A stretch of DNA of 59,941 nt, counting the filler, from Stramenopiles sp. TOSAG23-6 (Eukaryota), in NCBI GenBank assembly GCA_900128565.1. It is 11 parts of 11 records of this genome, joined end to end, with 100 filler letters (N's around TTAATTAATTAA, not from the genome) between each part and the next. Parts side by side here need not be neighbours in the genome. Positions count along the whole stretch, not along the records: positions 27,415 to 32,755 come from LT636918.1; 10 more parts are not named here. One strand, given 5' to 3'. Positions 2-45,154 of the stretch are shown here, in pieces. Made by a program: the position numbers and the translations under genes. The notes below the pieces were generated by a model. That model ran no database searches. It was not told the DNA's origin and saw only the letters and a list, made by a program, of their open reading frames with translations. The stretch's first letter is position 1, and each line of letters starts with the position of its first letter.

Positions 2-1590
2 ATGCTTTCTGTCCACAAGGATTTAAGGCTGGGTAATACTGGATGGACATCCACAGGAATACAAACCAACATGCATGTAGATTGGCACAAGGATAAAGGT
101 AATGTCAAAGGATCACTTCAGGCAATCCTAGTAATTGGAGAATTCGAAGGTGGTATTCTTTCTGTGAAAAAGAATGATGGTTCTACTGAAGATATGTATG
201 TTTTATCCCACACTGTAGTACTTGAAAAATAATTTATCGAAAAGACAATTGTATCACCAGCTCAGTGGGTGATTTGAATTTTTTTTTGATTTTTTTTTGA
301 TTTCGAATTTTTTTTGTATGCAATTTTGTACCTAATGATTTTTTTTTAAATATTTTTCCAAAATACATTCAAACTGAAAATTTTATGTTGCTCATTGGGA
401 ACTTCGCCAAATTCGATCATATGGTCAGCAAGGTTACATCTGGGCGTCGAACAGTCTTTATTTTTTTCTTAAATGAAAAAATTAAGTTCTTTTCGGACAG
501 GTGCATGACGAGTATTTTGCAATTCTCTTTGCAAGATACTGCACAAATTCTTGAAACTCGAAAAAAACAAAGGGCACAACTACTTCAATTTTCGTACAAG
601 GACATCTTGCATCTTTTGGCTAAAAAGCGAAGTACAATGTCATTGAAACAATCCGAACAAATTCAGAAAGAAGCACAAACTGTATGTTTTATTTTTTTTA
701 ATTTTTAATTTTTTTTGTACGAAATTTTGTACCTAACAATTATTTTTTTGAAATATTTTTCCATCTTACATGAAGTACAAAAAGCAAACCAAATAAAGTG
801 CCAAGTTGGATTATCTTTTGATGAGAACAAAGCCCAGAGAAAATCATTACAAAAAATACTCCTAGCATTGAAAGCTATACAAAAAAGAGTATTTGATTTG
901 GAACCAGTGAAAAATCCTCGCGGCTCTGGTGGCTATATGAAACCACCAAAATGTGCAAGTCAATGTCAAATATCTCAACTTTCAAGGGATTTCAATCCTG
1001 TTTCAACTGAACCACAACTTTTCGATTCAAACAATCAGTGTCCACATCGGCATGATAAAGTTGTGTGTGAAAATTTGGATGGTCGATGCTGCGTAAATGA
1101 AGCCATCAATTATGCGTTGGGTGAAAAAAAATTTAAAAATAATGATGAAAATGTTGGTATTGAAGATATAATTAAAAAACTTCAACCAATGTTCCAACTT
1201 CGAAAGTTCAAGAAAAACAACAAAAAACAAAATACACTAAACGCTATTGTTCAGGCCAAAGGTCAAATTATTATTGCTCGAATAACAGTCAATGTAGCGA
1301 AATCATGTGTACCTGATCATCATTACATTGCATTCAACTCGTGGAATTCGGTATTATTTCTTGGTACTTCATATCCAATTATTTTCGTTGAAGACAATGA
1401 TAAAATCACAGACTTTGCTAAAAAATTGAAAAATGATTTCAATGAAATTGGGCACATAACCCATGCATTTACATTATATGTATCTGGACGCCATTTACAT
1501 CAGACAATGTATAATACCCCAGACGATGCTTTGTACAATAAACAATTGCGCTGGGGTGCAGCACCAACAAAAAGAGCGAAACTGCAATAA
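2..1590 (+). CDS. 5'-truncated spliced gene (exons <2-195, 369-681, 772-1590): 2OG-Fe(II) oxygenase-like domain followed by a possible papain/Josephin-like domain
   Basis: Removing introns 196-368 and 682-771 joins three ORFs in frame. Motifs WHKD (HxD), GEFEGG, FDHMV and GRRTVF (H...R) match 2OG-Fe(II) dioxygenases. Confidence 0.6.
196..368 (+). other. Non-canonical GT-AT intron (family member)
   Basis: gatAT|GTATGT...TTGTACCTAAT...AAATATTTTTCCAAAATACAT|t caa; restores the frame (D-I-Q-T-E-N-F-M). Confidence 0.7.
682..771 (+). other. Non-canonical GT-AT intron (family member)
   Basis: act|GTATGT...GTACGAAATTTTGTACCTAAC...CCATCTTACAT|gaa; removes an in-frame stop. Confidence 0.7.
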
Positions 1591-5510: not shown

Positions 5511-5565
5511 TTTCGTACCTAACGATTTTTTTAGATTTTTTTTTAAATATTTTTCCAAANTACAT

Positions 5566-6458: not shown

Positions 6459-8290
6459 CTATAATGGAGAGAATAGCCCAGTACATGTATTGTCAAAAAC
6501 AATTTTTTTTTGGTGTACAAAACCAATTGTTAGGTAAGAAAATTTTCTATGAAAAAAAAATGTAGGAAAAAAAAAAAAAAAGGAAAACGAACAGTTCAAT
6601 ATTCCATTACAAAATTCATTATAATCAAGTATACCATTTTTGTTTGTATCTAATTCATTTATAAGCGCTGTGAATTCTTCAGGAATTAATTTGACTCCCA
6701 TATCATTCAAAAGCCATAATAATTCTTCCGCCTCAATGCCACCACATAATTAGTGTAACAATATGTCAAATTCAAAATTCGTTAGTAATTACAAAAAGCA
6801 TTTTACATTGAATATTTGAAATGAATGATAGGAACGTGCTCCTATCTTTGTCCAAATCCAAGAAAGCTTGTCTCATACTCGTATATTTTACATGTATTGT
6901 CAAAAAATATTTCAAAACATTTAAATGTAGTTAGACAGTACAAAATTTCGTACGAAAAACCAAAAAAAAAAATAATGAAGAGAAAAAGACAAGGTACATG
7001 AAGTTTACGATTCATTGCTTTTAATGTTTTGAGGGTAGTTTGATTTTTATTTGAAAGTTCCATGATTTGAGGAGAATATTTTTTTATGTCGTTTGCTGGA
7101 TAGCCTCCCATAACAGCAATGAATTCGTTATAGTTGATCAAACCATTTTTATTCGTATCAATTAGTTTCAAAAGTGTATCCTCTTGTTTTTTATCAAGAC
7201 CAAAATCAAATCTAGAAATCGCAGAGAGAAATTCGGAAGTTGTTATATATCCGCTTTTATTCGCATCAAAAGATCGGAAAGCATATCTTGAAAAAACATA
7301 TTTAAAATTCGGAATTTGTTAGGTATGGAATGGAATTTGGTATAAAAAGCCCAAAAAAAAAAATTGCACAAAAAAAAAACATACATCTCGCAGNTGAAAC
7401 CATTTTCTGTACACCCAATTTGAAACTGTACACATGTATAAAGAAAAAATATCTCAAATTTGAAATTCGTAAAAAAAATCTATAAATAATGTACTACAGT
7501 ATGCTATCCCACTGAAATTGGGTTGTGAAAAGTTCAGAATTTTTTTTGTCAGGTACGAAATTTCGTTAGAAAAAATTCGAAATTGAAATTACATCACACC
7601 CCAAGCCCAAAGTTTTTGATCTTCTTTTAATACTAAATCGTTAGAATCAGAAAAGGCTTCCAGCATTAGTTTTGTACCCTTCGAAGAAATTACACGTTTT
7701 ATCCGTCTTTGTTGAGTTTGTAGTTCTCTTTTTTGTTCCCAGAGTCTTCTGGTGGTGAGAATGATGAGGTTCTGTTTTTCAGGAAATTTATATTCCCAAA
7801 GAGATCGATTAGGCATGAGAATTTCCTTTGTCTGGGGTACAACCAAATGATAGCATGATGGATAATTAATACAATTTGGTGCATTCCAATTAGTTTGTGA
7901 AATTAATCGAGCCTTAATAGTTTCAGAAGTATCAGAAGGTTTAAACAAACCAACACAACTACCTTTGGTTGTTTTTACAGTTATATAGTAACTTCGACCT
8001 TCAGCATCTCTACGAGAAAGATTCCTGGATTCATTTAAACGATTCTTATCCGTAGTTATAAGCAATATAGAATTATCTTTTGAAAGATGGAGTTTACCGA
8101 GAGCACAATTATCTAGAATCCGCCTTCCACCAAGGGCCAAAAAATAGCAACTTGGGAATTGAAGAAAGTTTGGACCACCAATAGCCTTTACTTCTTGTCG
8201 TAGTGTCTCCTTGAGCATACCTACAGTACTTGATGAAGCACCCTGTATAGTGTATACATCTCCTTCTTGTGTTGCCAATTTTAGGCGCAT
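6459..8290 (-). CDS. Protein with N-terminal ubiquitin-like domains and multiple EF-hands; 6 introns (7518-7597, 7434-7497, 7283-7384, 6892-6997, 6746-6839, 6485-6592)
   Basis: Splicing gives LRD|AFRSFDANKSGYIT, DTNKNGLINYNEF, DLDKDRS|GGIEAEE and DTNKNGILDYNEF EF-hand loops. The N-terminus has Ub-like repeats (STVGMLKETL...GRRILDN; SDTSETIKARL). Confidence 0.7.
6746..6839 (-). other. GC-AT intron splitting an EF-hand loop
   Basis: agg a|GCACGT...TTACTAAC...CACTAATTAT|gt ggt restores the 12-residue loop DKDRSGGIEAEE. Confidence 0.7.
7283..7384 (-). other. GT-AT intron (family member)
   Basis: cga gAT|GTATGT...ATACCTAAC...TTCAAGATAT|gct ttc gives LRDAFRSFD; the nearby AG would shift the frame. 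Confidence 0.72.
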
Positions 8291-9390: not shown

Positions 9391-10813
9391 TCAGTCTTCT
9401 TTCCCACCTGCACCAAAATGAATACATGTTTTGATTAATTGTCTCATATGCTTTATAGAGGATAACACCTTTACAGAAATATGATCCTCTTCATGAACAA
9501 TTTTTTCTGTGCAATCATTCGTAGGGTTGGGGTTTAATTTCTTTTCAACCACAACGGAATCCAACTCTTTTATTTTCTGTAATTGTTTCACGCAGTGTTT
9601 ATCTAATTGTTGTAATGTTTTGTCCATTTCGTTTTTTCCTTGCCATGAGTCGAAAATATTCCATTCTTTCTGTGCATTAACAAATCTACGCAATAAATCT
9701 AAAATTCTTATTCTTTCTATTTCATTTTCATCAGTCGTCTCATTAGGGCAAATGTTTCTATCTTGAGACAAAGTAGACCATGAAAATTGCAACCGTATAG
9801 AGGATTCTGCTATAGATAGCAATGTACTGTCTACCAAAGAAAGTCCGATAAGCCATAAGATATCGGCGTGTATTGATATTCTTTGTTTTCGATCTTCAGT
9901 CATTACAGTAGGGTTAGGGCTATGATGCACAAGATTCAAAGGGACGTCAATGTTATCAATCAAATAATTACTTGCCTTATGAATATCATTCACCATATTT
10001 AGAAAATTGGGAATGCGAGCAATAAAGGATCTGCAGGTACTATTTGACAGTATTGAATACAATAACACTCTCTCTATACCAATTCCAATATTTGCAACAG
10101 TAAACGCTTTCTTTATATCATTTTCACTGATATTTGCAACAGTAAAAGCTTTCTTTATATCGTTCTTTGTCACTAAATTAATTTTCTGATTCATTTCATC
10201 AAAATTATTGGCATCTGAAACCTGAGTATTCTTCCTCTTTAACAGCTCTTTAAAATACTTGTCAATAAATCCAAATATACAAACAATTTCTCGTAAAATA
10301 CCTAGATCTGATATTTCTTTCGCAAAGTATGTATTGTAAAAAAATTTAAAAAAACAAAAGTTGTCAGGTACAAAATTTTCATCGTAAAAAAAAATGATGA
10401 AAACTCAAAACGTAAAAATCTTAAGTACACAATTTCGTACGAAAAAAAAAAAACATACATGAAACTCGTGAACAATGTGACAGTAATAGCATCCATGATG
10501 TCCAAGAAGACTCGAATCCAGTACAAAATGTATTAGACGTAGAGCTTCTAATAAATTTTGATACTAGCGACAGTAGCGTTCTAAAATTTATCTTTTCAAA
10601 AAAAATGTCATCATATTTTTCACATTTCTCAAAATTGGGTAAAATCAAACCGGTCATGTCGGACTCCACATTCACTGTTTTTGTATTTATTAATTTAAAG
10701 ACTTCTGTAGAGATAGTGCGTACCATACCACCATGGTGGTACTTTCTGAAAGACTCTCCTGATGCGACTGAGGAAAGAAAGTGTACCTTACTGATGTTTG
10801 ATTCTAAAGCTTG
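9391..10813 (-). CDS. 5'-truncated hypothetical protein (exons 10813-10459 and 10328-9391)
   Basis: GT-AT intron 10329-10458 (tcAT|GTATGT...ACAATACAT|ac) joins ORFs 10421-10726 and 9391-10194 in frame. An upstream family intron ends ...CACAATACTT at 10814. Confidence 0.65.
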
Positions 10814-17546: not shown

Positions 17547-18928
17547 TGTGCGCGTCAAGAACGGGCGTTTTTTGCGTTAGTAGTTCGTACGTGGTGTGTT
17601 CGTACTGATGAATGACCAGAGAGGCTAACGCAGACACACAAGTAACGGCGCAAATGTTCGCATACCTGACCGCCTATAAGCTGTTTTAAAATGCAGCGCC
17701 CAACAACTAAAGATGGAGAGACACCCTGCCTGGACAGCGCACGCGTGCACGAGACACTACAGCTGTGTATGCTGTCACTAAAATGCATGTTCGTGAGGGA
17801 AAGACTTCCACTTTTCTAGGAACATTCCCTCGGAAGACAAGGCCGAAACAATGAACTAATTACGAATGCGCATATCTAGTACGTGCCTCCAGTTGCAAGC
17901 AACTCTTCAAATATGTAACAGAGCTACCCGATTCGAACCGAGTCAAACATATCCCGCATACGTCTTTGATCATCAGCTACGCCCCCCCTGCAGTCTATAG
18001 GTGCCAATTGAAACGTCCGATGTTCTTGCCGAACGAAAACATTCGCAGACTCCAGACGTCCAAAAAGCTATTTTGGTGATCGCGAAAGGGCTCTTGAAGA
18101 TCTCTGGTTTTCTGAAAAAGAGCATGAAATGTTTAAAAACATGATGGAGAAGATGAAAAGACAGCGGTCCGCACTGTACGGAGAACACGGCAAGACCAAG
18201 GCCCGTGAAAACCTCATTGCGATTTTTGAAGAACACAAGGTCGAGCTCACTCCAAGTACGTTTCAGCTGATAGATGCGAAGTCTATTGGCGTTTTTGGTA
18301 GTTACGTGCGCCCACAACTTAAGCACAACTGCTTTGCCCCCTGTGCCACGCAGAACTTGCAGAGGATCTCCGCGAGTGGAGGGTAACATTTGAGTCACGA
18401 GATGACGCACTTCATGGTGATAATTAGCAACGTCTACGTAAACACAGTTTGTGCAAGGAGTAAAAAGCAAATTCACTGGACTGATCCCACCGTCGCGGCC
18501 TAGACCTCATACATAACCAACACAGTGGTCGGTGCATCGATTTGGCCCTAATTGAAATGTATCTTATTCTGAAAACGAGTGGACGTTGTCAAATAAAGAG
18601 CGAATTGCGTATTATTCATTGCAAACAATGTACTACACACGTGTTGACTTCTACTCGAAGAGCATTGTCTTAGTTGTTAGATGGGCCTCTAGATCCGATT
18701 ATGAATGACTCCCAAGCGTTGAGCTGTTGATGGGATTGACTCGGAGCGAAAAAATATTTCAGGCAGAAAACTGTGAATCTGAACGCTGAAGCTGGCCGGG
18801 CGTGTGTGGGGCTGTTTAAGGTGCGTCCGGGGGCGCTGAATCTGCGTGCTTAGCGCGTATATCGCATAATCTCGTTGATAGGATCCGACTGACAGCTGTG
18901 CGTTTCGCGCGACCATAGGTTTATCTCC

Positions 18929-21841
18929 ATGTCGGACCCGGGAAGTGCCACAGCCGCCACGGCGGGGGGGCCCAATGGTGAGATTGCAGATTGCGGCTTG
19001 AACGCGGCATCCTTGACAGCCATGCTGACAAAATCGCGCCAATGCGCAGATAAAGAAGCGCAAAGTGTGACGAAATCCTCCGCATCTGGCTCTGATCCTG
19101 GAGGGTCCGGTGGAAAGGCTGCCAACAAGTCCAGCCCCCCTCTATCCGATGCCAAAGCGGACGCCAGCGGTGCCGACGCCATTAAAACAGAGAATGGCGG
19201 CAATGCCGAGGCTTCTGAGTCTAATGAAGCCGCTGCTGGCAATGGTGTCAGTGCTGGTAATGAGACAGGTGCCAAGACAAATGGCGCTAAGGCAGCGAAA
19301 TCTGGTGATTCGGTCAAGGCGGCTGATGCCAAGGCCGATGTCGAGGGCAAGGCCGATATCAAAGCTACAGCGGAAGGCCTGGGTACCCAACCTAAGGATC
19401 TCAAGACCAAACCTGGACAAGAGACCGCCTCCGCGACTGAGAGTGTAGCAGACAAGACTGATTCAAAGACTGAAAATGTCACGGATTCAAAGGCGAAAAA
19501 TGTCAAAAACGCAACGGTCACGGGTCCTAAGACCAAGGAAAAGTCCGACAAATCAGATGCAGTGGTGAAAAAAACCAAACGCGAAAAAGGCCGCACGGCA
19601 AGCAACCCGCTCCTTGCTGTGGTCATGCCGCCTGGTGAGGTCTCTCAAGCGGAGAAAAAACCACGTCGTAAGAAGAAGACCAAGTCTATGGGCAGTCGTT
19701 TGGCTGGAATTATGGACAAAATGAAAATTGGCGCTGCCAGCAATGCTCCTGTTCCGCGTCCGGGGCGGAGGAAGTTGAGAAAAAAAGGCAGTTCTGGAAA
19801 ACTCAAGCTCCCTGTTGGCCTTATGGGTTTGATTGGTGGTGGGGCTAAAGATGACACACCTGGCAAGGCGCCTGGCAATGCGGCTGATGCTGTGAAAAAG
19901 AGAAAGAAAAAACCTCTATTCAAACGGACTGGAACAGCGCCATCCATGCTCCGAATGCTGCAAAGCGCGCCTGATATGCCATCCAAGGCTGGGAACGCCG
20001 CGGGTGGAAAGTTCAAGAAAGGTCCTCCTGGGTTCAGCGCCACTGTTGGAGGACGTATTCCAGGCGTTGCCACATTAGGCAGTGCTAAAGCAGGCTCTCA
20101 ATCAAGCACAATGCCAATGCGCGCTACATCAGGAGTTTTGCCATTGCGCAAGGGTCGTGGTGTTCGCAGTGGTGTTCGCAAAGCCCCGAAGGGTTTGGCA
20201 GGTCTCATAGGCAAAGGACGAGGCGGCATCAAAGGTAAAGTCCCCTTGGGTTTGGCATCTCTCATTGGAGGCGAAAGGCGGCCTGGTGTGAAAAAGACCA
20301 GGACATCAGGTGACCAGAACGGCTCTGAACAAACACCTCAAACGACTGCTGATGGCAAAACAGACACGACCGAACAGCCTAAAGAGCAACCTCTGAAAAA
20401 CACGGAAGAAGCGATGGAGAAACAGGATCTTGTTCATCTTACTCTCTCAAGACCAAAGGGCAAAACTAGAAGATCAAAGTCAAAACCGCGAAGGGTACGT
20501 GTTTGCGCGCCAAAAATCATGAGCCGATTTTTTCTTTTCTTTTTCGTGTGGGCTCATTTATCGGTTGTTTTTTGTGCTGTTTTTGATTTTTTTTTGGTGG
20601 ATTTTGGGACGTTTGTGTTTTGCAATTGCAGGCCAGGCTTGATGTGGTCCGCCGCGCGAAGCATGCACTAGCGCGCTGTTCTTCCATGTTTTTCCATGTT
20701 CTTCCACCCGCATTTGTCTGATCCGCATTTGTCTAACCCATTCTCTTGTCATCCACACGCAATACACACGCAACAGCGTAAACGAACAAAACGACGGTTC
20801 AAGAGCTCTCCCGAAAACGACCTGATTCAATTTGTGAAACCGATTCTTGATGAGCAGCATGCGCAGTGGCTCTACCGTCTGGCAGATGCAATCGATGGAG
20901 TCGGCAGCGAATCTGCCGCGGATTCCGATGCAGTTCAGGACGCGAAACGTCCTGTCGCCATGGGCAGTTCTAAAGCTGCAGATGTGTCTCTTGTGACGCC
21001 TCTCACTGGGCAATCAGATGAACAATCAGATGATGCAGAGAAACGGAAATCTGATGAGAAGGCTGATGTTTCAAATGATAAAAGGGATGCTAAATCAGCT
21101 GATGATGGTGCGAACCCCAACGATGATACCAATGGTATGAGAAACAAAGAGATTGAGACCAAGACAGACAAGACACCTAAAACGGCACAGACTGATGAAA
21201 CACAGACTGATTCAAGTGACAAAGCTCCTGCTGACAAGGTCGAATCTGCTAACAAGGCACCTACCAAGGCACCAGAGAAGCCTGTGGGGACAGATTCTCC
21301 ATCAAAACAAGAGAAAACAAGCGAGAACAGGTCCATTCGCATTCGCAAAAACGCCGCATTCCATGCAAAATCCATTTCAAAGCCCACAGTCCCAGTGGCA
21401 CGATTTCAATCCCGAAGATCCCGCAAATTCCGAAAACCAACACCTCCACAACCCTATCCTCCACAACCCCATTCTCCATTGCCCCATCCTGTGCCCCGTC
21501 CTGTGCCCCATCCTGCGCGGCGTAAACCCCCAAGACCCCCAAGACCAACAAAACCCAAACCCTTTTCAATTTCAAAACATACCCGCAAACCCCGAAAAAT
21601 TAAACCACACCCTTCCCAACATCCTGCCAAACCCGCTGCCAAATCTGCTGTCGAGCCTGCTACCCACACCCCTGGAGCGGCGGCACGACCAGCTTCATGG
21701 CTTGAGGCGTTTTGTGCAGCGCCAATCGCACCCCCCAAACCCCCACGTCCTTCTAAACCCCCCTTACCACCCCGGATATCATCTGTATCATCTCGCAGAC
21801 GTTCATCATCCAGGCGGCCATCCTCAGGATCAAAACCCAAA
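18929..21841 (+). CDS. Large low-complexity (Ala/Lys/Pro-rich) protein with a CPI-like motif; canonical GT-AG intron 20495-20776; 3'-truncated
   Basis: agg|GTACGT...GTCTAAC...CAACAG|cgt joins the 580-aa and 397-aa ORFs in frame. LVHLTLSRPK motif and PxxP-rich tail. Confidence 0.6.
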
Positions 21842-21941: not shown

Positions 21942-22573
21942 AGAGACAGGGTGAAATGGTTAAAGTCACAGATGTGCCACCTAGTTGGAAGCTGGCATCT
22001 GTAGCAACCACTAAACAGCCAAAAGTTGAAATAAAACATGAATCTTCAATTATTGCAAAACATGATGTCCCGATATTGAATAAGGCTCAACAAGTAGTTA
22101 AAAACAAATCCAACTCAAGTGCAAATGACCACCAAAAAGTTAAAGACGAATTCAACTCAAGTGCAAATGACCAACAAGTAGTTAAGAACGAATTGAATTC
22201 AGGTGATGAACGTGCTTGTAATATCGATAATGAAATATTATTACCACGTGTAAAAACTATCATGCGAGAAATGTTGAAAACCCTAATTTTAGCTGCAGAT
22301 CTTTCATCGACCACAGGACGAATACTCAGGAAAACTTTACAGAAGGAATATGAAAGTTCTAGTGAATTGTCTAGGTACGTTTCCATCATGATTTTTTCAT
22401 ACTCGATTTTTTTTTCGTAAATTTATATACACCTACTAATAATTTTTCTTTCATTTATTTTTGCACCATATATGATCCAAATCATCAACTGGGAGAATCA
22501 TTCAGTGAAAATGTTCATCAGAAATCAAATTAGGGAACTAAGTGCTGAAGTGTTTAAAAAGAGTGATGCTTAA
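21942..22573 (+). CDS. 5'-truncated protein ending in a DEK-C-like domain; GT-AT intron 22375-22473
   Basis: LKTLILAADLSSTTGRILRKTLQKEY...KMFIRNQI. Intron ag|GTACGT...CCTACTAAT...CACCATATAT|g. Confidence 0.6.
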
Positions 22574-22714: not shown

Positions 22715-25700
22715 CTATTTTTTATTAGTAACACACATCTTTACAGATAATCCTTTACTAGATCCAGGTTTCTCATTTAGGTGTCTTTTAAATCGCCGAG
22801 TATTTGAAAACTTCATTGGGGTTGATTGATTACCAGGTGTTGATTTCTTCTTTAGAAACCATGATTTCATATTATTTCTTCTTTGATCACGTCTTGAATG
22901 TGGTAACATGGATCTCGATGCAGTTTGTTTACTCAATAATTTTTCTCCCTTTACAGATTTTAATGATTTTGTAGATTTAGATGATATTTTCAACATATTC
23001 CGTCTAGTTGGGAAACCACCATAGGTATTGATTGCATTCACTTTGTCCTTTGAGCCTTGTTCTATAACACTTGAAAGTGGTTTATTTCTTTTTTGTGAGG
23101 ATCCTGTTCGATACGAACTCAATTTTCGATCTATTTCAAAATCATCTTTTTCAAGTATACCCGAAAGGTCCATATCCATATTTGATGATTGAATCAGTGA
23201 TAATTTTTCCTTGTATTGTCTCAATAAATCCGTTAATTCACCCAATAAAATATTATTCTCCTGTATAACTAAGTCAAACTCCGATTGCTTCATAGTAAAT
23301 AATTTTCTAGTTTCTTCTAATTCTTGATTTGCTTGATTCAATTGATTTGTCTTGGCCTCAAGTTGCTTTGCAGCGTAGGCGGCTGTGCTTCGAATATGTT
23401 TCACTTTTAGTGACATTAAATGAGTTTCTCTGTTTACTTCTAACTCTAATTTACGTTGAAATGTAACTGTTCTTGGTATTTTCATATCTTTAATTACTTG
23501 AGCAGTAATATTTTTTTGTAACTCCATGGTGAGGTTTTGACGCAAATCATGCTCCATTTTACGTTGAATCCTTTTTAATGTTTCTCCATCTATGCAGTTT
23601 TCTCCTTCTAAACCAAAAGTAGTAGGCTCATGATTGTGGGTATCAGAATTATCAACAACATTTGGACTAAGTAAGGATGAAGGATTTTTAATTCCTTCGT
23701 CGTTATTGGAGGGAGTATTAGGAAACATATTTAATGATTCATCTCCATCTAACATTTTCCTCATGCGAACATTCTCTGTCTTTAATGCTTTAATGTTTTG
23801 ACTAAGTCTCTGAATATCCTTGTCCTTATTCTTGATTTTCAATGAAGACTGTGATAGATCATCTTGCATTGTTCTATATCGTAGCTTCATTAGTTCACGT
23901 TCAGAATTTGCACTCGCAGTTTCTTTTGATAAACTCACAACTTTCTCCTCAAATATGCTATTTTTCAATTGAGTCTTTTGCAAAGTATCTGATAACTTTT
24001 CTAGTTTTTCCTTTAATAAGACAGACATCTTTTCCATATTTTTTGCCTTTGAATTTAACCTACGATTATTATCAGATAACTTTTTGTTGGAGTTCTTCAC
24101 ACTTGTATAATTTTTCATTTCAGATGTCATTTTTCGTACTTTTGACTCAGCATCCTTTTCTGCCATGCGTGATTTCGCAAGTTTATTTTCGAGTTTAATT
24201 TTATCTTTAATTACATTTTGTAGTTTTTGAGCAGCGCCACCTCCTGAAAGAGCTTCTTCCAATTCCTCTATATTCGTTTTATAACGTAAAGTTGTTCGTT
24301 TAAAACTATCTCGTTCCTTTTCTAATTTTTTAATGCTTTTGTTCAATTTCTGAATATGTATTGTGCTATCCTCCACTAGATGTTTTCTATCGGCATCAAA
24401 GTGTTCTTGTAGTCCTTTCACTTTTGTGGATAATATTGCAGCATCTCTAATCTGAACTCTTTGTAAATTCAATAATCCTGCATTGCGTGATTTTGCAAAA
24501 TCATTTTTGAATCGTACTTGCAAATTGTGAATAGTATTCTGATTTTCCTCACATATGTCTCCCAAAGTCGAAGTTAATGCATCTTTTACGCTAGATTGTA
24601 CCAAATTTAACATGGAGTCTTGAATTCTTCTTTGCTCCGTGGCTAATCGAGAAGCATTCTTTGCAACGCGACTATAATGTATTCTATAGACATTTTCTGC
24701 TTCACCAAGTACTTTGCCCATCGCCTGCTTTGCAAAATCAGCTGCAATTTCACGTCGCTTTGGCAGCGAACCTGCTTGTAATGCTCTATCTATAATATCC
24801 ATAAATCTTTGATCCAGAGTTAGTCTCTCTGAATGAACTGACTGATGTACTTTCAACCCCTGTAATTTACTTACTAGGTCTTGTTCTGTACTCTTATCAG
24901 TGTCAAACTCTTTTATTTCATTGTTATCTAATTTGTCAACTTGGTTCATCGTGAAGTATTTCAATCTCAGCAAATCAAGTTGTTGAATCAAATTTGCCTC
25001 ATTTATAGCAACCTGTTTTATATATTCTTTTTCTGAATGTTTCGCTTCGGTAATTTTTGGTGAAGCTGTTGACGCTAAAGCATTCATTACATATGTACAG
25101 TATCTTTGAATAGTTGTAACATTGTTATTATCTTTTTCTAATACATTTACCGTGGCTGAGTTATTTGATTTATTGCCTATATCTATTTTAGTATCTCGGA
25201 CCGAATTTCCATTTTTGCTCCGCGTTAAAAAGGACGCAGCCGCAAGTGGACAGAAGATTTTCCCTGGCCATTTTTTTATAGCAGAATAAACATGGTCACT
25301 ATCTACATCAATATTGGATATCCATGAAATAACGTCTTCAAATCGAATTCTCGGTGTATTTGCAGTTGTACTCCGCAATAAATCCATTTTCATCACCATG
25401 GTAGGATCAACTTTTGAAATACTTCCCTGTTCTCCACCGTCAATTTTCGATAGTAACTTCTGAAACTCCGTTGTTAGTGCAGCATTGCCTAATGCAAGAT
25501 TCAAATTTCTGCAACATTGTTTAAAACTTTGAAAGTCTATATCGTCATCTTCATCTGAGTAAGCTTTTAAACAACTTAGACTCACCCAGACTTCAATAAA
25601 ATGTAGACATATTTTGAGCAAAGTGTCTAAATTACTTTGCGTTACCCATGGTCCATCCAACTTTACATCGAGTTTGATATCACCACGTGTACACGCCTTT

Positions 25701-29095: not shown

Positions 29096-29254
29096 TTTAG
29101 TNTAGTGTTACAATTTAGGGATAATTTATACATCGATGTATTATTGTTTTAATTGAAAACTGTATATCAATTTGACTTTGGAAATATACAACATATTCGT
29201 ATATGAAAAAATAAAAGAATTCCTAACTATATTATACATTTTTATTGTTTTATA

Positions 29255-30748
29255 TCAATCAATATCATCATTGTGAATACATAACACTTCATTACCTATT
29301 TGAGCAGTATGTATTGAAAAACTTTCAAGAAGAATCTTTTTTTTACTAAATACACAGGAAAAGAATAAAATGATTGATATACCAATAGCTGATAGTAAAA
29401 CACCATTTGCCATCAATATTCCTTCTTGTTTATTCGGTGCATTTTCCATCAAAATGTTACAGATCCATAAAAAGAAAACACCAGCAAATTGTGCAACACA
29501 ATTTAGTACACCAGCAACTACAGCTTCATCAGCTTGAAGGGCAAGTGAAGTAGCTAATTCAAATCCACTGGACAAAACTGCTGCAATAAAGAATCCAGTA
29601 AAAAAAAGTGACGAATACAAAAGTATAACACAATACCCATCACACATAAAATGCGTTCCCTCAAATTTTTGAGCATATACAACAGAATATCCAAAGAAAA
29701 CTGTACCAAGTAAGGTACCTACTAGTAGAAAACCCATTATTCTTAGTTGATTGAAATTGAATATATCGAATAATTTCCCGCTGCTATATGATCCAAATAC
29801 CCATATTGTGAAAAAAGTATTTTTTTTTGTAAAATTTGTTTGGTAAAAAAAATTGACAAAAAAAATAAATTCGAAATTGAAAAAAAAAATAAAACATACC
29901 CCAAACATAATAAAACCAATGCCGAGCCATCCTATACGAAGATTTGAAGTATATGCAGGTAGAAATTGTGCAAGAAATGTTGCAATTCCATAAAATACAC
30001 CTACATTTAATCCATATACAATTGAAAAACTAATAAGGCTACATGAAGAAGTAAAGACTTGAAGTGATTCAATATATCCTGCTTTATGTAAATTCCTCAA
30101 TGAACCATTTGATTCCATAACTATTGGTGGGGTTGGTGGAGAATTTGCCATTAAAAAAAAAATAAGCAATAATGCAAGTAGAGCGATAAGGCATTGAATA
30201 CTTAGATAAATGCTCAACTCCTGAGTAGAGTATATATCAAATACAACTCCAGAGCCTAGACCAAAAGCAGTTCCAAGATTATTAGCAAAAACACCAATTG
30301 ATGTGGCTAAACAACGTTCGTGTTCACCAAACCAAGAATGAGAAAGAAAAGGAGGTATCGCTAGTGTGAATGTTTGTGCAAGTGCTGATATAAAGGTACC
30401 AATGTATACCATCTTATACGTGGAAGAGTAATACCAACGAATGAAAGATCCTGAAAAATTAAAAAGTGCCCCAATCAGTAGTCCTTTTCTCATCCCGACT
30501 CTGTTGATGAACCACAAAGCTGGAATTGATGCTGGAATATATGTGTACATGAAAACCATTGAAAGATTATTAACATCTGCATATGAAGTTTTCCAAATTG
30601 TTGAAACTTCAGTAACCAGCGGAGAAAACGTTATCCATTGCCAACCATTAGATAAGGTCAAAAGAGCAAAGCTAAAGAGAACGAACCACCGCTTGGAGTA
30701 AAGTACTGGATTAGCGGTCTCCTGACCAAGAAGCGAATCGTGATTCAT
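29255..30748 (-). CDS. MFS transporter, FLVCR/SLC49-like, with an in-frame 99-nt intron (29801-29899)
   Basis: YSKRWFVL, QWITFSP and WFGEHERCLATSIG motifs. The Phe-rich insert VCFIFFF...FFTIW is a family intron. Confidence 0.85.
   Translation of the reverse strand: MNHDSLLGQETANPVLYSKRWFVLFSFALLTLSNGWQWITFSPLVTEVSTIWKTSYADVNNLSMVFMYTYIPASIPALWFINRVGMRKGLLIGALFNFSGSFIRWYYSSTYKMVYIGTFISALAQTFTLAIPPFLSHSWFGEHERCLATSIGVFANNLGTAFGLGSGVVFDIYSTQELSIYLSIQCLIALLALLLIFFLMANSPPTPPIVMESNGSLRNLHKAGYIESLQVFTSSCSLISFSIVYGLNVGVFYGIATFLAQFLPAYTSNLRIGWLGIGFIMFGVCFIFFFNFEFIFFVNFFYQTNFTKKNTFFTIWVFGSYSSGKLFDIFNFNQLRIMGFLLVGTLLGTVFFGYSVVYAQKFEGTHFMCDGYCVILLYSSLFFTGFFIAAVLSSGFELATSLALQADEAVVAGVLNCVAQFAGVFFLWICNILMENAPNKQEGILMANGVLLSAIGISIILFFSCVFSKKKILLESFSIHTAQIGNEVLCIHNDDID
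29801..29899 (-). other. GT-GG intron (family member), in frame and stop-free
   Basis: ttt gGG|GTATGT...TACCAAAC...TTCACAATATGG|gta ttt; removal restores the TM helix IMFG|VFGSYSSG. Confidence 0.7.
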
Positions 30749-31118
30749 TCTTCAAAGTATTCTAGATAATGTCAATATGTGACATGCCACTGTTGGAAAA
30801 TCTATTATTTTTGTTTCGAATTTTTGTATGTCCTCAAATAGGTAATTATTAGATTTGACACACTTGACTTGACCGATTTGGGATGACCAACAAAAAAAAA
30901 TTGTCAAATACAAAATTTGAAATTTGGACGATTTGAATTTAGTTCACTTCGAGTGTGATATCATTTATCTTTTTTTCACATTCACTTATATTTGATTTTG
31001 TATGTAAATAATAAAGAAATAAAATACAAATATTTTTTGATTTTGTTTTTAATAGTAGTACTGTATATAGACAATCTTGCAAATGCAATAAAAAGTCATA
31101 TATATATAAGGGTTAGGG

Positions 31119-32539
31119 TTACAAACAGTTTCCAACTTTTACACATAATTCTGCCATTCTATTTGAATATCCCCATTCATTATCATACCAAATATATACT
31201 TTTACTTGAGTACCATTGACAACCATTGTAGATGCGGCATCAACAATACCTGAACGAGGATCATTTGTATAATCCGTAGATACTAAAGGTTTGACCTCGA
31301 TGTATTGTGAAAAAATATTTCAAAAAATTCTAAAAATTTTGTTAGGTACAAAATTTCGTATGAAAAAATATTGATGAAAAAATCTGATGGACAACGTACA
31401 CACCCAAAATGCCTTTTTTAGACCCGGATGATGCAGCATTTGTGAGAACTTGATTTACTTCACATGTTGTTGTTTCTCTCTGCATTTCAAATACACAATC
31501 TGTGAGTGAAGCGTTTGCCACAGGTACGCGAACGGCATCTGTATTTGGAAAAAATATTTCGAATTCAAAATTTGTTAGGTTTGGAATTTTCATGTAAAAT
31601 TTTTGTTTTTTTCATGTAATTTTTTTTTAAATTCATTATGAAAACATACATCCATTTAGTTTACCTGCAAGTTCTGGTATGACGTCACCGATAGCTTTGG
31701 CTGAACCAGTGCTTGTAGGAAACATAGACGCTGGAACAACACCTCGTGATCTACGAATATATATTATAAAAAATATTTCAAAATATTTCAAAAATTTGTT
31801 AGGTACAAAAAATTCTATACAAAAAAAAATAGATAAAAAATTATAATGAAAAACAAACATCTTTTTGTGCTGGCCAGTGTGCATCAAGAACCGTTTGTGT
31901 GTTTGTGACATTATGAATTGTAGTAATCATGCCATGAGAAATTCCGATGGTATCATGAAGAACTTGAATGACTGGAGCAATACAATTTGTAGTACAAGAT
32001 GCTGCGGTTATTATATGATCTGTTTTTGGATTATACTTACAATCATTAACTCCCATAACAACATTCAACACGCCTTCCTTTAATGGGGCAGCTACGATTA
32101 CTTTTTTTACTCCATGTTGAAATAGTGGAGCTAACTTTGATTTTGTTTTAAATTTTCCAGAACACTCAAGGACAATGTCACAATTGCTCCAGTCGACTGA
32201 CTCAAGTGAAGTTTCAGTAGATAGACTTACTTCATTTCCATTAACAGTAAACGAGTTTTCTGAAAACTGTATACCACTTTCATAATCAGTCGTCGCATAT
32301 ATATCATTCTTACCATTTGTATTAGGAATCCAACGACCGTGAATACTATCCCACTCTAATAAATATGCAGAAGTCTCTGGAGTTGATTTAGGTTCATTGA
32401 CGTGTATTATTGTTAATTCATTCGAAGTTGTTTTGTCAGAAAGAGCCCGAAATACTAAACGGCCAATACGACCAAAACCATTGATTCCTACTTTGATAGG
32501 CGATGACTTTGAATTTGAAAAAGTTCCAATTTCTGGCAT
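31119..32539 (-). CDS. GAPDH: Glyceraldehyde-3-phosphate dehydrogenase, ArsJ-associated/gap3-like type; introns 31759-31858 (GT-AT), 31539-31649 (GT-AG), 31300-31399 (GT-AT)
   Basis: [74 protein letters not shown] and WYDNEWGY motifs. Confidence 0.92.
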
Positions 32540-32855
32540 GCTACTTGAGTCAAAGAGAAAAAAAAAATACACTGTGTGGTAAGTCCAAGCTCTAAGATTG
32601 TGTTTTTGGTGAACAAAAAAAAGATTTAAAAATCGACTTTTTGACTACTAGTCGAAAGTTGAAAACTTGAAATCGAAATTGGACTTGGTGGCGCCAAGGT
32701 TTGGCGCCAAAAATGTAGGGTACCAAAATATATCTTGTACCCGAAGTCCACAGGANNNNNNNNNNNNNNNNNNNNNNNNNNNNNNNNNNNNNNNNNNNNT
32801 TAATTAATTAANNNNNNNNNNNNNNNNNNNNNNNNNNNNNNNNNNNNNNNNNNNN

Positions 32856-32906
<51 letters not shown>

Positions 32907-32910
32907 ATAC

Positions 32911-35327: not shown

Positions 35328-35633
35328 GGTAGCGTTTCTCTCTTGTTTTTAATGTAGTTGTAATAATGAAAACGGCGTTAAAAAAACTAAGATACGAAGA
35401 TATACGTCGACGTGTGATAAAACAAAACGTATGTACTGGAAAGTGGTTTTTATACTAAAATTCTGTACCTAAAAAACGAACGCGTGAGAGCGAGCGAACA
35501 AATATCCTTGAGCGAACTTCACTTACGGATGATACGCGCCTTGTTTTTAGGATACGACATACGTTGTTGTAATCAATCGATTTTACGATATCTTATAATC
35601 GACCTCAATTGTTTTACACATCAAAGAAAGAGA

Positions 35634-38305: not shown

Positions 38306-38345
<40 letters not shown>

Positions 38346-38418
38346 GTTCGAAAAATTTGTACGTAACGAATTGTTTATCTAAAAAAAAAAAAAAAAAAAA
38401 TATTTTTTCACAATACTT

Positions 38419-39788
38419 GTTCAAAGATTCTTTCAGGAAGAAAGCAGGAAAATTCCAGAGAATTTTATTATCTGTGTTAAGGGCATACTCGGTGTACGAT
38501 CCTTCCCTGGGCTACGTTTGTTTTCTGATGAATTTCAAATTTATGTTTTTTTTTTCGTAGGAAATTCTGTACCTAAGATTTTTTTTTCTAGAATATTTTT
38601 TCACAAAATATTGCCAAGGTATGAATTGGTTATGTGGAATAATTGTGCTTACCCATAATGAAAAAATGAAAAAAAATATAGAAACCAAAAGAAAAGATGA
38701 TTGTACTGAGTATACTTTGAACTCTTTAAAAATTAGTGTTAATACTAATGATATGAAAGAAAATGTAACTTTCAATTTCAATTTTTTTTTTTTTTTTTTT
38801 TTTGTAAAATCTATAGTAATTACTAACAAAAAAAACATTTTTTTTTGAAATATTTTTTTTTTTTTGTATATTTCATTGTAATACCTAACAAAAAAAAACA
38901 TTTTTTTTTGAAATATTTTTGACATCATCTCATTCAAGTATTGGTGTGTTTCCTTCAAACCCAAATGTTGAAGTACTAACAGGTGGTGATTTTTCTCAGA
39001 AATTAGGTTTTTCAATAGATTCGAAACTTCCGATGGAACACGAAAAAACAAATGAAAATGAAGCAGAAGCAGAAGCAGCAAACCCTAACCCTAATCAGCC
39101 TCTAGAAAATGATACAATGATGATTTCAGATAATGATAGCATTGTTCCAATTGGTCTTTGCCTTACTAGAGAAGAATGGTGTACAGCACTTGAAGTATTT
39201 ACACTCGTACTTTTTTATCATTTCAATTTTTTATCTAAATATTTTTTCATACGAAATTTTGTACCTAACAAATTTTTTAGAATTTTTTTGAAATATGTTT
39301 TCACTTGATATACATCTGCCATAATGGAAAGACCTTCGTTTGGATTAAGAGGTATGTATGTTCGTGGAATGCCAAAACTTGAAGATCTCTTTATTACATT
39401 AGATATCTTAACTTTACGTCACTTACCCAATCTTCATAAACATATAAAAAAAGCGAGGTGTAGCGCTGGGGTTCCTGTTCAACCCTCGTGCAGACTTTAT
39501 GCCGTTCAATGGTTTCTTTCTTTATTTTGTCGTGATTTCGATCTTAGTCTTGGCTTAAAAGTATGGGATGCTGTGATGTATCGTGGAATTTCCACACTTT
39601 TACGTGTTGCCGTGGCTGTACTTAAAATGGCAGAGCCTGAGTTGATGAAAATGAATTTCGAAGGCATTTTACACCATTTACGAACGGATTTACCAAAGAC
39701 AATTCGTGTAGAACAACTCTGGTCTGAAACATTAAAATTAGACATTACAGAGTCAGTATTGAATAACCTTTTGAATGAAGTTAGATGA
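38419..39788 (+). CDS. Rab-GAP TBC-domain protein (5'-truncated); introns 38516-38611, 38765-38930, 39207-39311
   Basis: VLRAYSVYDPSLGY|CQGMNWL, YAVQWFLSLF and LKVWD motifs. Confidence 0.85.
38516..38611 (+). other. GT-AT intron splitting the TBC GYCQG motif
   Basis: ggc tac|GTTTGT...GTACCTAAG...CACAAAATAT|tgc caa ggt; both neighbouring AGs give frameshifts. Confidence 0.8.
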
Positions 39789-42139: not shown

Positions 42140-42407
42140 TAAAATCATCAATAGTAATTTCAAATTTCATTTATTGTTATTTTTACAATTACAATTTATG
42201 ACTCTTTTATAAATTAAAAAATATCTAAAATAATAATATTTATTTCAATCCTTTTTGATTATACATTTTGTCAATATTTTCTCAAAAAATATAATAATAT
42301 TTATTTCAATTCCTTTTTGTTTACACATTTTTTTTTTACCTACATTTTTTTTTCGTACGAAATTTTGTACCTAATAAATTCAAAAAAAAATTAAATTTTT
42401 CTTTTGT

Positions 42408-43575
42408 TTACACATTTTCCTCTTCATCATCACTAAATTCAATATGAATCATAGGACGTTTCCAATATCTCAAACCACTAAAATTTTCATCGATTGAACT
42501 TTGATGACCTAATCTACTACCAGAATGAACAATGGTCACATTTTCGTCAAAAGGTGGAAACATTTGATCGACAAAGTATTGTGAAAAAATATATTTTTTT
42601 AAAAATTCGTTAGGTACAAAATTTTCTACCAAAAAAAAAAAATTAAAAATTAAATTTTGAAAACGTACATATGCGATAGAGAAGAATACGAATCCTGAAT
42701 AGTATGATTATAATGACGAATAAGACCATCGCTATTAATAACGAAAATTTTTCCTTGTGGAACTCCCACTGCATTATATGCCATTACATGTATTATAAAA
42801 AAATATTTTTTTTGTAAAATATTTTGTTAGGTACGAATTTTCCTACAAAAAAAAAAAAAAAAAAAAAATTAATTTAATTTTGAAAACATACATCTGTATG
42901 TCGATTTCCAAAACCAGCATAAAACGGGTTTTCATTTTTTGTAAACAAATTTCGGATACTACGAAGAGCTCCAATTTTAAACTCTTCAGGACGTCTAACA
43001 ATGACTTCTCGTTTGAATGCTTCAAATAAGCGACTTGGTGATGTGATTACCGGACCATCAGGAAGATATCTTGTGAAAAAATATATTTTTTTTTTTTTTT
43101 TTTTTTTTTGTAAAAAAAAAAAATTCGTTAGGTACAAAATTTCGTACTAAAAAAAAATTCAAAAATAATCATGAAAACGTACATGTTGGTCACCTTGACT
43201 TATATTACTTAGATAATTCTTTGTCGCACTAATTTGTCCGATTGCTCTACTTGTTAGGTACAAAAGATGATAGCCATTGTTACGTACTCCTTGAAATAGA
43301 GCAGCAACACCAGAATGAGTCCAATCTCTACCAAGCATATATAAAACATGACCTAGTGCATCAGATTTTGTAATGGTTCCATGAATTGTGTAAAAATATT
43401 TAAAAAAAAAAAAAAATCTTAAGTACAAAATTTCGTATGAAAAAAAAATTATAGATAAAAAATTCATTATGAAAACGTACATCAACATCGCTGACGACAA
43501 TTTTCGAGTGAGATGACCAACAATAGATTGTTGCTTCGACTGTTTGTGTCCCTTGCATTGATGACGTCACACTAA
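42408..43575 (-). CDS. LPIN: Lipin / phosphatidate phosphatase (LNS2 domain), 5'-truncated; introns 43381-43480, 43066-43182, 42788-42891, 42574-42668
   Basis: Spliced product contains [55 protein letters not shown] and VDQMFP. Confidence 0.92.
43381..43480 (-). other. GT-AT intron inside the lipin catalytic DxDxT motif
   Basis: gtt gAT|GTACGT...TACGAAATTTTGTACTTAAG...CACAATTCAT|gga acc att aca. Confidence 0.85.
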
Positions 43576-43797
43576 ATGTATTTTGGAAAAATATTTGAAA
43601 AAAAAAAACTAAAATTTGTTAGGTACAAAATTTNNNNNNNNNNNNNNNNNNNNNNNNNNNNNNNNNNNNNNNNNNNNTTAATTAATTAANNNNNNNNNNN
43701 NNNNNNNNNNNNNNNNNNNNNNNNNNNNNNNNNTAGGTACAAAATTTCGTACGAAAAAAAAAATTTAGACAAAAAATTGAAAAAAAATAAAACATAC

Positions 43798-44482
43798 ATA
43801 GTGTCGATGGACTGGAACTGGGGGGTAATTCCCCTAATAGCAAAGTGGTAGAACAAGAAATAGAATGAGACGTATGATTATTTTGAAGACTTTGTGATGT
43901 GTGATTATTTTGAAGACTTTGTCTTTGTTTCTTTTGCTTCTTTTGAATGTATTGCGTTTGTTGATTTTGTTGATTTTGTTGATTTTGTTTAGTAGGGATT
44001 GGACTTTTGTTTTGAAAAGAAGAACGTGCGAGTACAGTACGTTGCTGATCGGAAAAAGAAGTGGGCTTATAATTGGTTGACTCGTTATGTAGAGAATACC
44101 CCTTGTGTATGTTATATTGACGCTGGTTCGTTACTCTATTCATATTTGAGGGGTCGTTTTCCTGAGAATATTGTCTCGGTGACGTTTGCATGGCATACAC
44201 ATGGTTCCCTCCGAGATGTTTCTGAGAAGATTTTGCAGAAAAACCATACCCGTTTGTAGATCTTTCAGATTCAATAGATCCATTATTGGCATGTAATTTC
44301 GGTCGATAACTCCAAGATCGTTGCGTTGATGAGTTGGACTTTCCAACGCTTCGTTGTAGAGGAGACAAATTTTGGAAATGACGCTGATCTGTTTCATATT
44401 TTATATTACCTTGCTCCTGTTGAAGAGGACGAGAAAAAGTTGTTGGTTGAACTACTCCTTTCTCTGCATCATGTGTTGACAT
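43798..44482 (-). CDS. First exon of a Gln/Ser/Asn-rich low-complexity protein (copies 49234-49918, 54670-55354)
   Basis: ATG-initiated ORF ending at a family donor (ctAT|GTATGT) at 43797. Confidence 0.6.
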
Positions 44483-45154
44483 GATATTCTATCGTTTGGA
44501 TAGAAAATGTAATGTTCTTTTTCAACAACACAATACTTTACTATAGACAACGTCAATAAAATATACTCAAAATAGTAAAAAGGCGCGATGTTTACGAAAC
44601 TTGGTTCAAAAAAAATTGCGCAAGTTTTTTTTTTGAGTTATTTTTGAGTTATTTTGAAAATAATTCAACAAAATTTTGGAACAAACCTGAGACGCCAATT
44701 TTTAGCTCTCCTAGGGTTAGGTTAGGTGCCTAGGGTTAGGGTTCCTGGTGTTTTGGTCAGCCCTTCATTTTTTTTTCGCGAAAAAAATTCAACTCTGTGT
44801 TTCTGCTCTGCGCACGAATTTTCCTTCAACGTAGACCTTTTTTCTATCACTCAAGGAGTACGTAATTCTCTTAATTACTTTATTATTATATACATCATCG
44901 ATTAACTTATCTTGTTGACGATCATTTCATTGATTCTTAAGAAGAGTATGATTGTCTTTCCTTGTTTTTTTGCAATTTGTTTTTCTTCATGAACCAAGTC
45001 ATGACTTTCTTCCTCCGTTTTGTTGTCGTGTCTGTTTTTCGGTTTGAACCTGGCATTCTTTCCTTTGATATAGTGTTTTTTTACTCTAGCATTTCACAGT
45101 GTATGTCTAACCCTTTCCAAATTTCTTATATTCTGAAAAAGCAGTACTCTTACA

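Follow-up and report, generated by a model that had tools for sequence, protein, structure and literature searches.

A family of introns ending mostly in AT rather than AG, likely introner-like, in unrelated genes of a presumed MAST-3 stramenopile

We analyzed a stretch of 59,941 bases from Stramenopiles sp. TOSAG23-6 (GenBank assembly GCA_900128565.1), hereafter the window, in which a GAPDH gene on the minus strand carries three introns of one family that recurs in unrelated genes of the window. The window consists of contigs of ~5.3 kb, sorted by length and chained by N44-TTAATTAATTAA-N44 linkers (at positions 5455, 10934, 16410, 21886, 27359, 32800, 38240, 43678, 49114 and 54550). Its last three segments (43734-49069, 49170-54505 and 54606-59941) are identical to each other, so that whole-window counts tally that contig three times; the unique sequence amounts to ~45 kb. 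GAPDH exon 1 is 100% identical to a database open reading frame (ORF), and the same gene is EukProt record GSMAST32.ASY1.ANO1.1080.1; the source organism is therefore presumably a marine stramenopile of the MAST-3 lineage, represented by a single-cell assembly. The stretch is present in public sequencing runs, both small single-organism runs from 2015 and seawater metagenomes, and the guanine-cytosine (GC) content of the window is near 32%. The GAPDH locus is organized as follows (nt, nucleotides).

31119..32539, minus strand: GAPDH gene of the bacterial, ArsJ-associated type, 369 codons (ORFs, NCBIfam NF033735 and homologues)
32539..31859, 31758..31650, 31538..31400 and 31299..31119, minus strand: GAPDH exons 1 to 4 (ORFs), the last including the stop codon
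31858..31759, minus strand: GAPDH intron 1, 100 nt, GTTTGT...ATATAT, phase 0, exon flank AT
31649..31539, minus strand: GAPDH intron 2, 111 nt, GTATGT...ATACAG, phase 1
31399..31300, minus strand: GAPDH intron 3, 100 nt, GTACGT...ATACAT, phase 2

The open frame of the gene is interrupted three times, and comparison with homologues defines the parts that have to be removed. The exon lengths (681 + 109 + 139 + 181 = 1110 nt) are consistent with intron phases 0, 1 and 2. Joined across intron 1 the protein reads KD-I-RRSRG, where homologues have L (175), M (2), I (1) or A (1), and no in-frame GT/GC-AG alternative was found within 15 nt of this intron. The junction at intron 2 reads LNG-Y-AVRVP; 212 homologues show H, L, V, I or T at that residue and none has D or Y. 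At intron 3 the junction reads GILG-VEVK-PLVS, with E at the second place in all homologue patterns, and the Pfam domain Gp_dh_C runs on without a gap (profile positions 76-118 match residues 1-44 of the 45 in exon 3, and positions from 123 onward match from the third residue of exon 4). A canonical GT-AG reading of intron 3, with both ends moved by +4 nt, was rejected because it would turn the invariant E into Y. The existing database model of this gene (P0002) uses other splice sites, with the result that the conserved IRRSRG is lost and VYVV replaces the E-containing junction. P0002 additionally cuts two in-frame pieces out of exon 1. A preliminary description of this locus, made from the sequence by eye, had placed copies of 100, 111 and 100 nt in GAPDH, ending AT, AG and AT at one register, and these coordinates proved exact.

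The gene itself bears on the age of its introns. The best NCBIfam model for exon 1 is NF033735, at 247 bits versus 115 bits for the GapA-like model, and the nearest relatives besides the gene itself are bacterial (52-55% identity for exon 1, 73-76% for exon 3). Among these, the nearest with names are gammaproteobacterial. Thus the gene was probably acquired from bacteria and received its three introns later; given its bacterial subfamily, they would not be ancient eukaryotic introns.

That the GAPDH interval 31300-31858 holds three members of one family of ~100-nt introns is well supported by the sequences of unrelated genes in the window. Searches with nhmmer profiles, built from 8 and then 15 copies, found ~30 distinct copies in the unique sequence, a profile count that the preliminary description had proposed for the whole genome and that was run here within the window. 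They comprise 17 full-length delimited introns, six 3′ parts and two 5′ parts cut by contig ends, three copies past stop codons, and ~3 without clear boundaries. Besides GAPDH, their hosts include genes for lipin, a TBC RabGAP, a major facilitator superfamily (MFS) transporter, an EF-hand protein, an RNase T-like exonuclease and others, while several long ORFs (519-1163 codons) have no copy at all. The full-length introns outside GAPDH are these.

43480..43381, 43182..43066, 42891..42788 and 42668..42574, minus strand: four full introns in part of a lipin gene (Pfam LNS2), the last ending TT
29801..29899, minus strand: MFS transporter intron ending GG, with exon flank GG; MFS_1 match in the upstream exon; in frame solely at the family register
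38516..39311, plus strand: part of a TBC RabGAP gene with introns 38516-38611 and 39207-39311, placed by frames; RabGAP-TBC match in the exon after 39311
196..771, plus strand: two introns, 196-368 (173 nt, the longest) and 682-771 (90 nt, the shortest), in frame and placed by profile alignment; host gene without a Pfam match
7384..7283, 6997..6892 and 6592..6485, minus strand: introns of an EF-hand protein gene (profile, frames)
10329..10458, minus strand: family intron of 130 nt with two core blocks, in frame, phase 1
22375..22473, plus strand: diverged intron with branch site CTACTAAT, ending ATATAT, flank AG, in frame, phase 2

The copies align end to end to one profile. Their layout is, in order, a donor GTAYGTTTT(C), a weak block AATTTTTTATCTA, a T run, the core CRTACGAAATTTTGTACCTAACAA, a spacer and the 3′ block AAATATTTTTTCACAATACAT. 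A 27-nt family block ends in a yeast-like branch site TACCTAAC(AA), and the 21-nt 3′ block follows 35-45 nt further on. Conservation covers about 58 of 100 positions; among them are a 16-nt stretch that precedes the branch site and the weaker block in the 5′ half. Allowing at most three mismatches, an 18-nt core matched 26 times, compared with 0.14 expected from shuffled sequence, and the 21-nt 3′ block matched 20 times, compared with 0.03 expected (both counts take in the triplicated last contig). Lengths range from 90 to 173 nt among the 17 full-length copies, with 13 within 95-111 nt and all but the 173-nt copy within 90-130 nt. The claim that introns in unrelated genes follow one consensus is borne out by these counts and by the end-to-end alignment, and such likeness along the whole length of introns in unrelated genes is what defines introners. 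Every delimited intron of the window seems to be a family copy, and no systematic search aimed at introns without the family blocks was made.

The 5′ end and the branch site are of the canonical U2 type. All 17 donors start with GT and have T at +6, with A at +3 in 14 and G at +5 in 15, a consensus of the kind recognized by U1 and U6. CCTAAC or a near variant lies in the core of nearly all copies, giving a TACTAAC-like branch site, and this block sits 35-45 nt ahead of the 3′ end in 13 of the 14 copies where it was located by script. That the element itself supplies donor and branch site, as had been proposed, thus agrees with the family sequence, in which both are carried.

Boundaries were set by the profile: the G at its position 1 was taken as the start of the donor, and the acceptor was placed at one fixed register following the 3′ block. 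Delimited in this way, 16 of the 17 full-length copies connect the longest frame upstream with the longest one downstream (P = 2.7e-7). The remaining copy, 6592..6485, lies before a C-terminal exon whose compatible frame leaves 7 codons before the stop, and thus speaks neither for nor against the register. The final base of the intron carries 1.57 bits of information and the exon base that follows carries 0.15; at the donor, information reaches two bases into the upstream exon. Across three introns of the lipin gene, the LNS2 profile coordinates of successive exons are contiguous (25-55, 56-119(121), 122-179 and 180-218). Removal at the family register would therefore restore the frame precisely, as judged by frame and by Pfam contiguity over four introns, these three and GAPDH intron 3. 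In the TBC gene the junction reads GY-CQGMN, which we take to fit the TBC motif. Two 3′ ends at a nearby ATACAT or AT (39315 and 29803) were tried and are out of frame; the register ends at 39311 and 29801 are in frame. Taken together, frame and homology support the register boundaries well, to the residue in GAPDH and lipin.

At these boundaries the introns do not end in AG. The last two bases at the register, in 23 copies, are AT in 18, TT in three, GG in one and AG in one, the last being GAPDH intron 2, whose register is the same as that of the other copies. The preliminary description had likewise read the acceptor as something other than AG. An in-frame GT/GC-AG alternative within 15 nt is lacking in 10 of 16 tested copies, including all four lipin introns. 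Moreover, 5 of the 14 copies with a branch site found by script skip an AG that lies downstream of the branch-site block and before the 3′ end, as do, by eye, three cut copies. Non-AG ends and skipped AGs at a fixed register suggest that position, not AG, marks the 3′ site, and we regard a non-AG acceptor as well supported by frame and homology.

We considered whether the boundaries are instead displaced by two nucleotides, so that the introns are AT-AC, or whether they are a transformed minor (U12-type) class with flexible 3′ ends. Such a shift leaves the mRNA unchanged wherever the exon flank equals the intron end (9 of 17 copies), and the non-canonical termini of minor introns include GT-AT and GT-GG. 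Excerpts of a study of Blastocystis, also a stramenopile, put its predicted minor introns at 253, with AT-AC termini in 77% and phase 0 in 49% (10.1101/2022.09.24.509304); phase 0 accounts for 10 of the 17 introns here. The termini fit this idea poorly. GT is invariant (17/17), whereas the shifted introns would start with AT in only 11 of 19 cases and end in a mixture of AC, AT and TC. In GAPDH intron 2 the shift yields D, where the 212 homologues have H, L, V, I or T. The U12 donor consensus is RTATCCTT, and its branch site, TCCTTAAC, lies 10-15 nt from the 3′ end; the family donor differs from it at +5 and +6 and the branch-like block is 35-45 nt from the end. A search of the window with Rfam found no small nuclear RNA (snRNA) genes, only tRNA. 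A boundary shift is thus unlikely, and we give this alternative as a whole, minor class included, a very small chance.

A second question is where the terminal AT comes from. The preliminary description proposed that the family is a non-autonomous cut-and-paste DNA transposon with GTAT...ATAC ends, which inserts at AT and duplicates it, one AT copy then becoming the acceptor. Several features speak for this. Immediately upstream of the donor the exon ends in AT in 11 of 19 cases, compared with a coding-ORF background of 0.095-0.121 (P = 2.4e-6); the strong excess described earlier therefore stands, with the count at 11 of 19 in place of 12 of 22. Intron ends are AT in 18 of 23 copies, and the last two bases vary at a fixed register, as a dinucleotide derived from the target would. 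The downstream exon opens with G in 10 of 23 copies (P = 0.009), so that the exon junction prefers AT/G (the slash marks the intron position), and with GTA in 4 of 23 (P = 4e-4), which would fit a longer duplicated site in some insertions. The MFS intron, with GG as both flank and end, lies in a 6-nt direct repeat, GGGTAT, at both junctions. There is also precedent: in the portion of PMC11282704 available to us, the Micromonas IE1 introner draws its 3′ AG from a 3-nt duplication, and in Fritillaria an exonic TAC forms the 3′ site.

The expected mark of a duplication was, however, at chance level. Flank and intron end are identical in 9 of 17 pairs, a count close to the 10 of 22 described earlier; shuffling gives 8.36 (permutation P = 0.41), so that two separate AT preferences yield as much by chance. 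Among the seven pairs with non-AT flanks six disagree, the AG-ending and TT-ending pairs included; GG/GG is the sole match, and it can slide by 4 nt to a GT...AT reading. The decaying 2-bp target-site duplication read from such identities consequently finds no support in this small sample. The GTAT/ATAC inverted repeat is present as had been noted, but it is only 4 nt long (6 nt with AT flanks), and its two arms do not vary together (C stands at donor +4 in 8 of 17 copies, yet A is kept at acceptor -6 in 20 of 22). No transposase domain was matched in the 37 ORF pieces scanned in the window, and all copies are in sense orientation. Finally, AACGA follows the branch site in two of the three TT-ending copies and in 2 of 20 others (Fisher P = 0.07); the same two TT copies also share a poly-A spacer, by eye. 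This association of TT ends with subfamily marks hints that the terminal dinucleotide is inherited as part of the element and not taken over from the insertion site. The idea that a duplicated dinucleotide becomes the acceptor is not supported in these pairs; the mechanism of a transposon duplicating AT targets is unproven, and we think it unlikely to be the explanation.

We favor, by a modest degree of belief above an even chance, an introner-like family that spread by copying and is spliced GT...AT, in which the 3′ block of each intron determines where its 3′ site lies. Each copy would carry its own signals, namely the donor GTAYGTTTT, the branch block ending in TACCTAAC and the 3′ block AAATATTTTTTCACAATACAT. 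The spliceosome of this lineage would find the 3′ site from the intron-borne 3′ block, not from AG, and the exon would resume at a fixed register. The introns would stem largely from copying of one founder into sites preferring AT/G, in an introner-like burst; the terminal AT would be part of the copied element and the exon-side AT a preference of insertion or of splicing. An introner origin is likely, and we infer both removal by the spliceosome and spread by copying from the following observations.

Copies behave like a repeat. Introns of the GAPDH and TBC genes share an exact match of 35 nt, the longest seen from one gene to another, and 8 of the 17 distinct contig ends fall inside copies, although these make up ~7% of the sequence (P = 8e-6); a high-copy repeat would lead one to expect this. 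Variation in the core is linked to variation in the spacer and 3′ part in a Mantel test (r = 0.28, P = 0.012). The GAPDH introns indicate that gains have occurred, and if splicing requires ~60 specific bases, a set that would hardly be reinvented each time, these gains would have to be copies; selection on splicing would then leave only the blocks alike. In two metatranscriptome runs (X7 and X9), most of the summed contig depth fell in the two bins with intron cores (31311-31368 and 29858-29899), where it reached ~10,000 and ~1,000, compared with 0-56 in the other bins; this depth sums other organisms too, is not a copy number, and may include DNA. Intron-family sequence is thus abundant in those libraries, as unspliced RNA, stable introns or carried-over DNA. 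As to route, the sense orientation of all copies in transcripts, the absence of a transposase domain in the 37 ORF pieces, and local tandem duplications with a period of ~60 nt inside three copies are, in this small sample, no less compatible with reverse splicing than with a cut-and-paste element. The introner literature, in the sections of PMC12130899 we could draw on, mostly favors DNA transposons.

Several observations weigh against copying of an AT-ended element. Contigs of four RNA-library runs, compared with 29103-32755, did not bridge a GAPDH intron. A spliced-transcript protein, sought with the 45-amino-acid GAPDH exon 3, gave the existing database model as the sole 100% match, the next matches being bacterial at 73-76%. 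The boundaries rest on frame and homology because neither source gave a junction, and identical flanks allow them to slide without a change in the mRNA; a slide by 1-2 nt does alter a residue at 31649/31539, 22375/22473 and 682/771. The sample, ~45 kb, is small. No antisense or clearly intergenic copies were seen in the window, the three copies resembling 3′ untranslated regions (UTRs) being sense too, whereas a DNA transposon should leave such copies. Three of four Mantel splits were non-significant, and pairwise identity is high at the donor (0.80), before the core (0.67), at the branch site (0.78) and in the 3′ block (0.76) but 0.55 in the two spacers, which we estimate to be near chance for T-rich sequence. 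With likeness concentrated at splice signals, long extended signals without mobility could account for it.

The last two points lead to an alternative in which nothing moved: the introns were inherited, long splice signals are held by selection after a change in the lineage's spliceosome, and the likeness is convergence. Blocky conservation at the donor, branch and 3′ sites with spacers near chance identity speaks for it, as do the non-significant Mantel splits and the lack of additional conserved structure (RNAalifold on 15 of the 17 full-length copies, with 196-368 and 10458..10329 left out, gave 0 pairs). Shifted splice signals co-evolving with snRNAs have reportedly been described in Physarum and Entamoeba. 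Set against this are the ~58 conserved positions in 100, including the 16-nt stretch before the branch site, far over the need of any known signal; the tightly clustered lengths; the presence of three family introns in a bacterial-type gene; and the repeat-like identity seen in the assembly breaks and the 35-nt exact match. We therefore consider inheritance without mobility improbable, and prefer spread by copying.

Among known systems, behavior is closest to that of introners. The introners of Micromonas pusilla and Aureococcus anophagefferens and those of Gozashti et al. 2022/2025 are also short introns in unrelated genes, alike along their length, with their own splice signals, a picoeukaryote host and burst-like spread. 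Those introners, in the excerpts of PMC11282704 and PMC12130899, end in AG, and many have clear target-site duplications of at least 3 nt and real inverted repeats. Here, in contrast, the ends are GT...AT, the repeat is 4 nt, the duplication signal is at chance and the family seemingly makes up all introns rather than a subset. There is likeness, too, to the mostly non-canonical intron genomes of Fritillaria, Amoebophrya and euglenids. In the tunicate Fritillaria borealis most introns escape GT-AG, the exon-side motif resembles the 3′ intron end and a transposon origin has been proposed; its introns, as given in part of PMC11282704, are mostly AG-AC and AG-AT with a diverse 5′ end, whereas the present family has an invariant yeast-like GTAYGT donor and is unusual, and uniform, at the 3′ end only. 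Amoebophrya is likewise a marine protist with a majority of non-AG introns, and repeated intron families are known there too. Its introns and the nonconventional introns of euglenids have inverted repeats of 8-20 nt that pair the intron ends, variable termini and direct repeats of 3-5 nt, according to the excerpted text of PMC7789003. Here RNAalifold gave no pairs, so that the ends show no such pairing, and termini and register are uniform.

Two further comparisons concern the splice signals themselves. Yeast U2 introns (GTATGT, TACTAAC) have the same donor and a branch site one base away from that of the family. Yeast tolerates a long and variable distance from branch site to 3′ end and uses the first suitable YAG after the branch site. 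The family passes over AGs in between and uses a non-AG position behind its conserved 21-nt block. The expanded minor introns of Physarum polycephalum reportedly have long conserved motifs, many non-canonical termini and a history of massive gain, but the donor and the branch-to-3′ distance found here do not fit U12 features. What sets the family apart from introners and from the introns of Fritillaria, Amoebophrya and euglenids is that a yeast-like, invariant donor and branch site occur together with a non-AG acceptor that is uniform and keeps a fixed register; end-pairing, a real inverted repeat and a demonstrable duplication are absent as well. A scan with a 19-nt core gave no matches in viral contigs, three in JGI metagenome contigs and one in GTDB genomes (a bacterial genome record); the three metagenome matches, which by eye lack the other family blocks, look like chance. 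Literature searches that took in parts of PMC5778133, PMC8163842, PMC12614181, 10.64898/2026.04.17.719054, PMC12130899 and 10.1101/2022.06.06.494994 turned up nothing on unusual introns of MAST lineages in those parts; their supplements could hold some.

The remaining copies are cut, lie outside reading frames or lack clear boundaries.

43633..43576, minus strand: fifth lipin copy, cut by a contig end; the five lipin copies, four full and one cut, lie within 1.1 kb
5511..5565, plus strand: 3′ part of a copy cut by a contig end (profile)
10814-10881 (minus), 10990-11052 (plus, repeated in inverted orientation at 16304-16366), a donor at 32910 (minus), 38328-38418 (plus), 43734-43797 (minus) and 48988-49067 (minus): other copies cut by contig ends
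45369..45469, plus strand: family-like copy just past the stop codon of a Sec61-gamma gene (45155-45358)
22576 to ~22738 and 42319-42415, plus strand: further 3′-UTR-like copies
~38804-38928, plus strand: TBC RabGAP copy with a duplicated core and unclear boundaries
7640..7385, minus strand: additional family-like sequence upstream in the EF-hand gene

The three UTR-like copies were delimited by eye outside reading frames, and all are sense to the upstream gene. For 7640..7385 (minus) and 38804-38928 (plus), a search for donor/acceptor pairs with an open frame found none. A weak match at 35429-35476 was excluded, and the region 3900-5410 was not parseable.

Tandem duplications with a period of ~57-62 nt occur inside copies 10329-10458 (minus), 38804-38928 (plus) and 42231-42415 (plus). 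One intron has two cores, another has two full units, and the array at 42231-42415 is a row of three 3′-end-like pieces with a 17-nt direct repeat around 42319-42415. Ahead of the core lies a stretch (AATATTTTTTCATAC) similar to the 3′ block (AATATTTTTTCACAATAC), for example in copy 31300-31399 (minus), and the ~100-nt unit may have arisen as a dimer of a ~50-nt unit. In two convergent gene pairs (22715-22738 and 42406-42415), the last codons and stop of the minus-strand gene lie opposite the 3′ end of a plus-strand family-like copy located downstream of the stop codon of the neighbouring gene. At contig end 32856-32905 a run of ~50 A (T on the minus strand) directly follows the family donor at 32910 (minus); long T runs inside copies probably help to break the assembly.

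Two contigs of the window stand apart. Contig 10990-16365 has identical sequence at its two ends in inverted orientation, with a 586-codon ORF at 10992-12749 (plus) mirrored at 14606-16363 (minus), and looks like an amplification or assembly chimera. Contig 16466-21841 has a GC content of 46-51%, compared with ~32% elsewhere, encodes an RRM protein and has no family copies; it may come from another organism or from an unusual region of the genome. A telomere-like motif, CCCTAACCCT, occurs 14 times in the window, compared with 0.05 expected, or 7 times when duplicated and mirrored segments are set aside (9910, 12764 with its mirror at 14582, 31109, 39083, 44732, 45635 and 48547). Several of these motifs directly follow stop codons, for example 3′ of the GAPDH stop, and the motif may be a terminator or promoter box.

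At the density seen here, a genome of tens of Mb would hold on the order of ten thousand copies. We can then envisage, at a little short of an even chance, that this widespread MAST-3 lineage has replaced the AG rule, with nearly all of its introns, ~10^4 of them, belonging to one introner family, GT...AT, whose 3′ site comes from the 21-nt block at a fixed register and which were copied into AT/G sites. If so, it would join three other lineages whose introns are mostly non-canonical and would be the first in which a non-AG acceptor is uniform, and published MAST-3 gene sets, built on GT-AG models, would be systematically mis-spliced. The mis-modeled P0002 is a sign that this organism's gene sets are mis-spliced; gene counts, 'missing' functions and pseudogenes in such assemblies may then be partly annotation artefacts. 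Few genes are reported for MAST-3 assemblies, and decayed dynein genes in MAST-3A, in the portion of PMC5778133 that deals with them. Such a genome would also give a clean natural case for the origin of introns, a cassette that carries all that is required for its own removal, 3′ site included, and it would show a U2-like spliceosome working genome-wide without AG.

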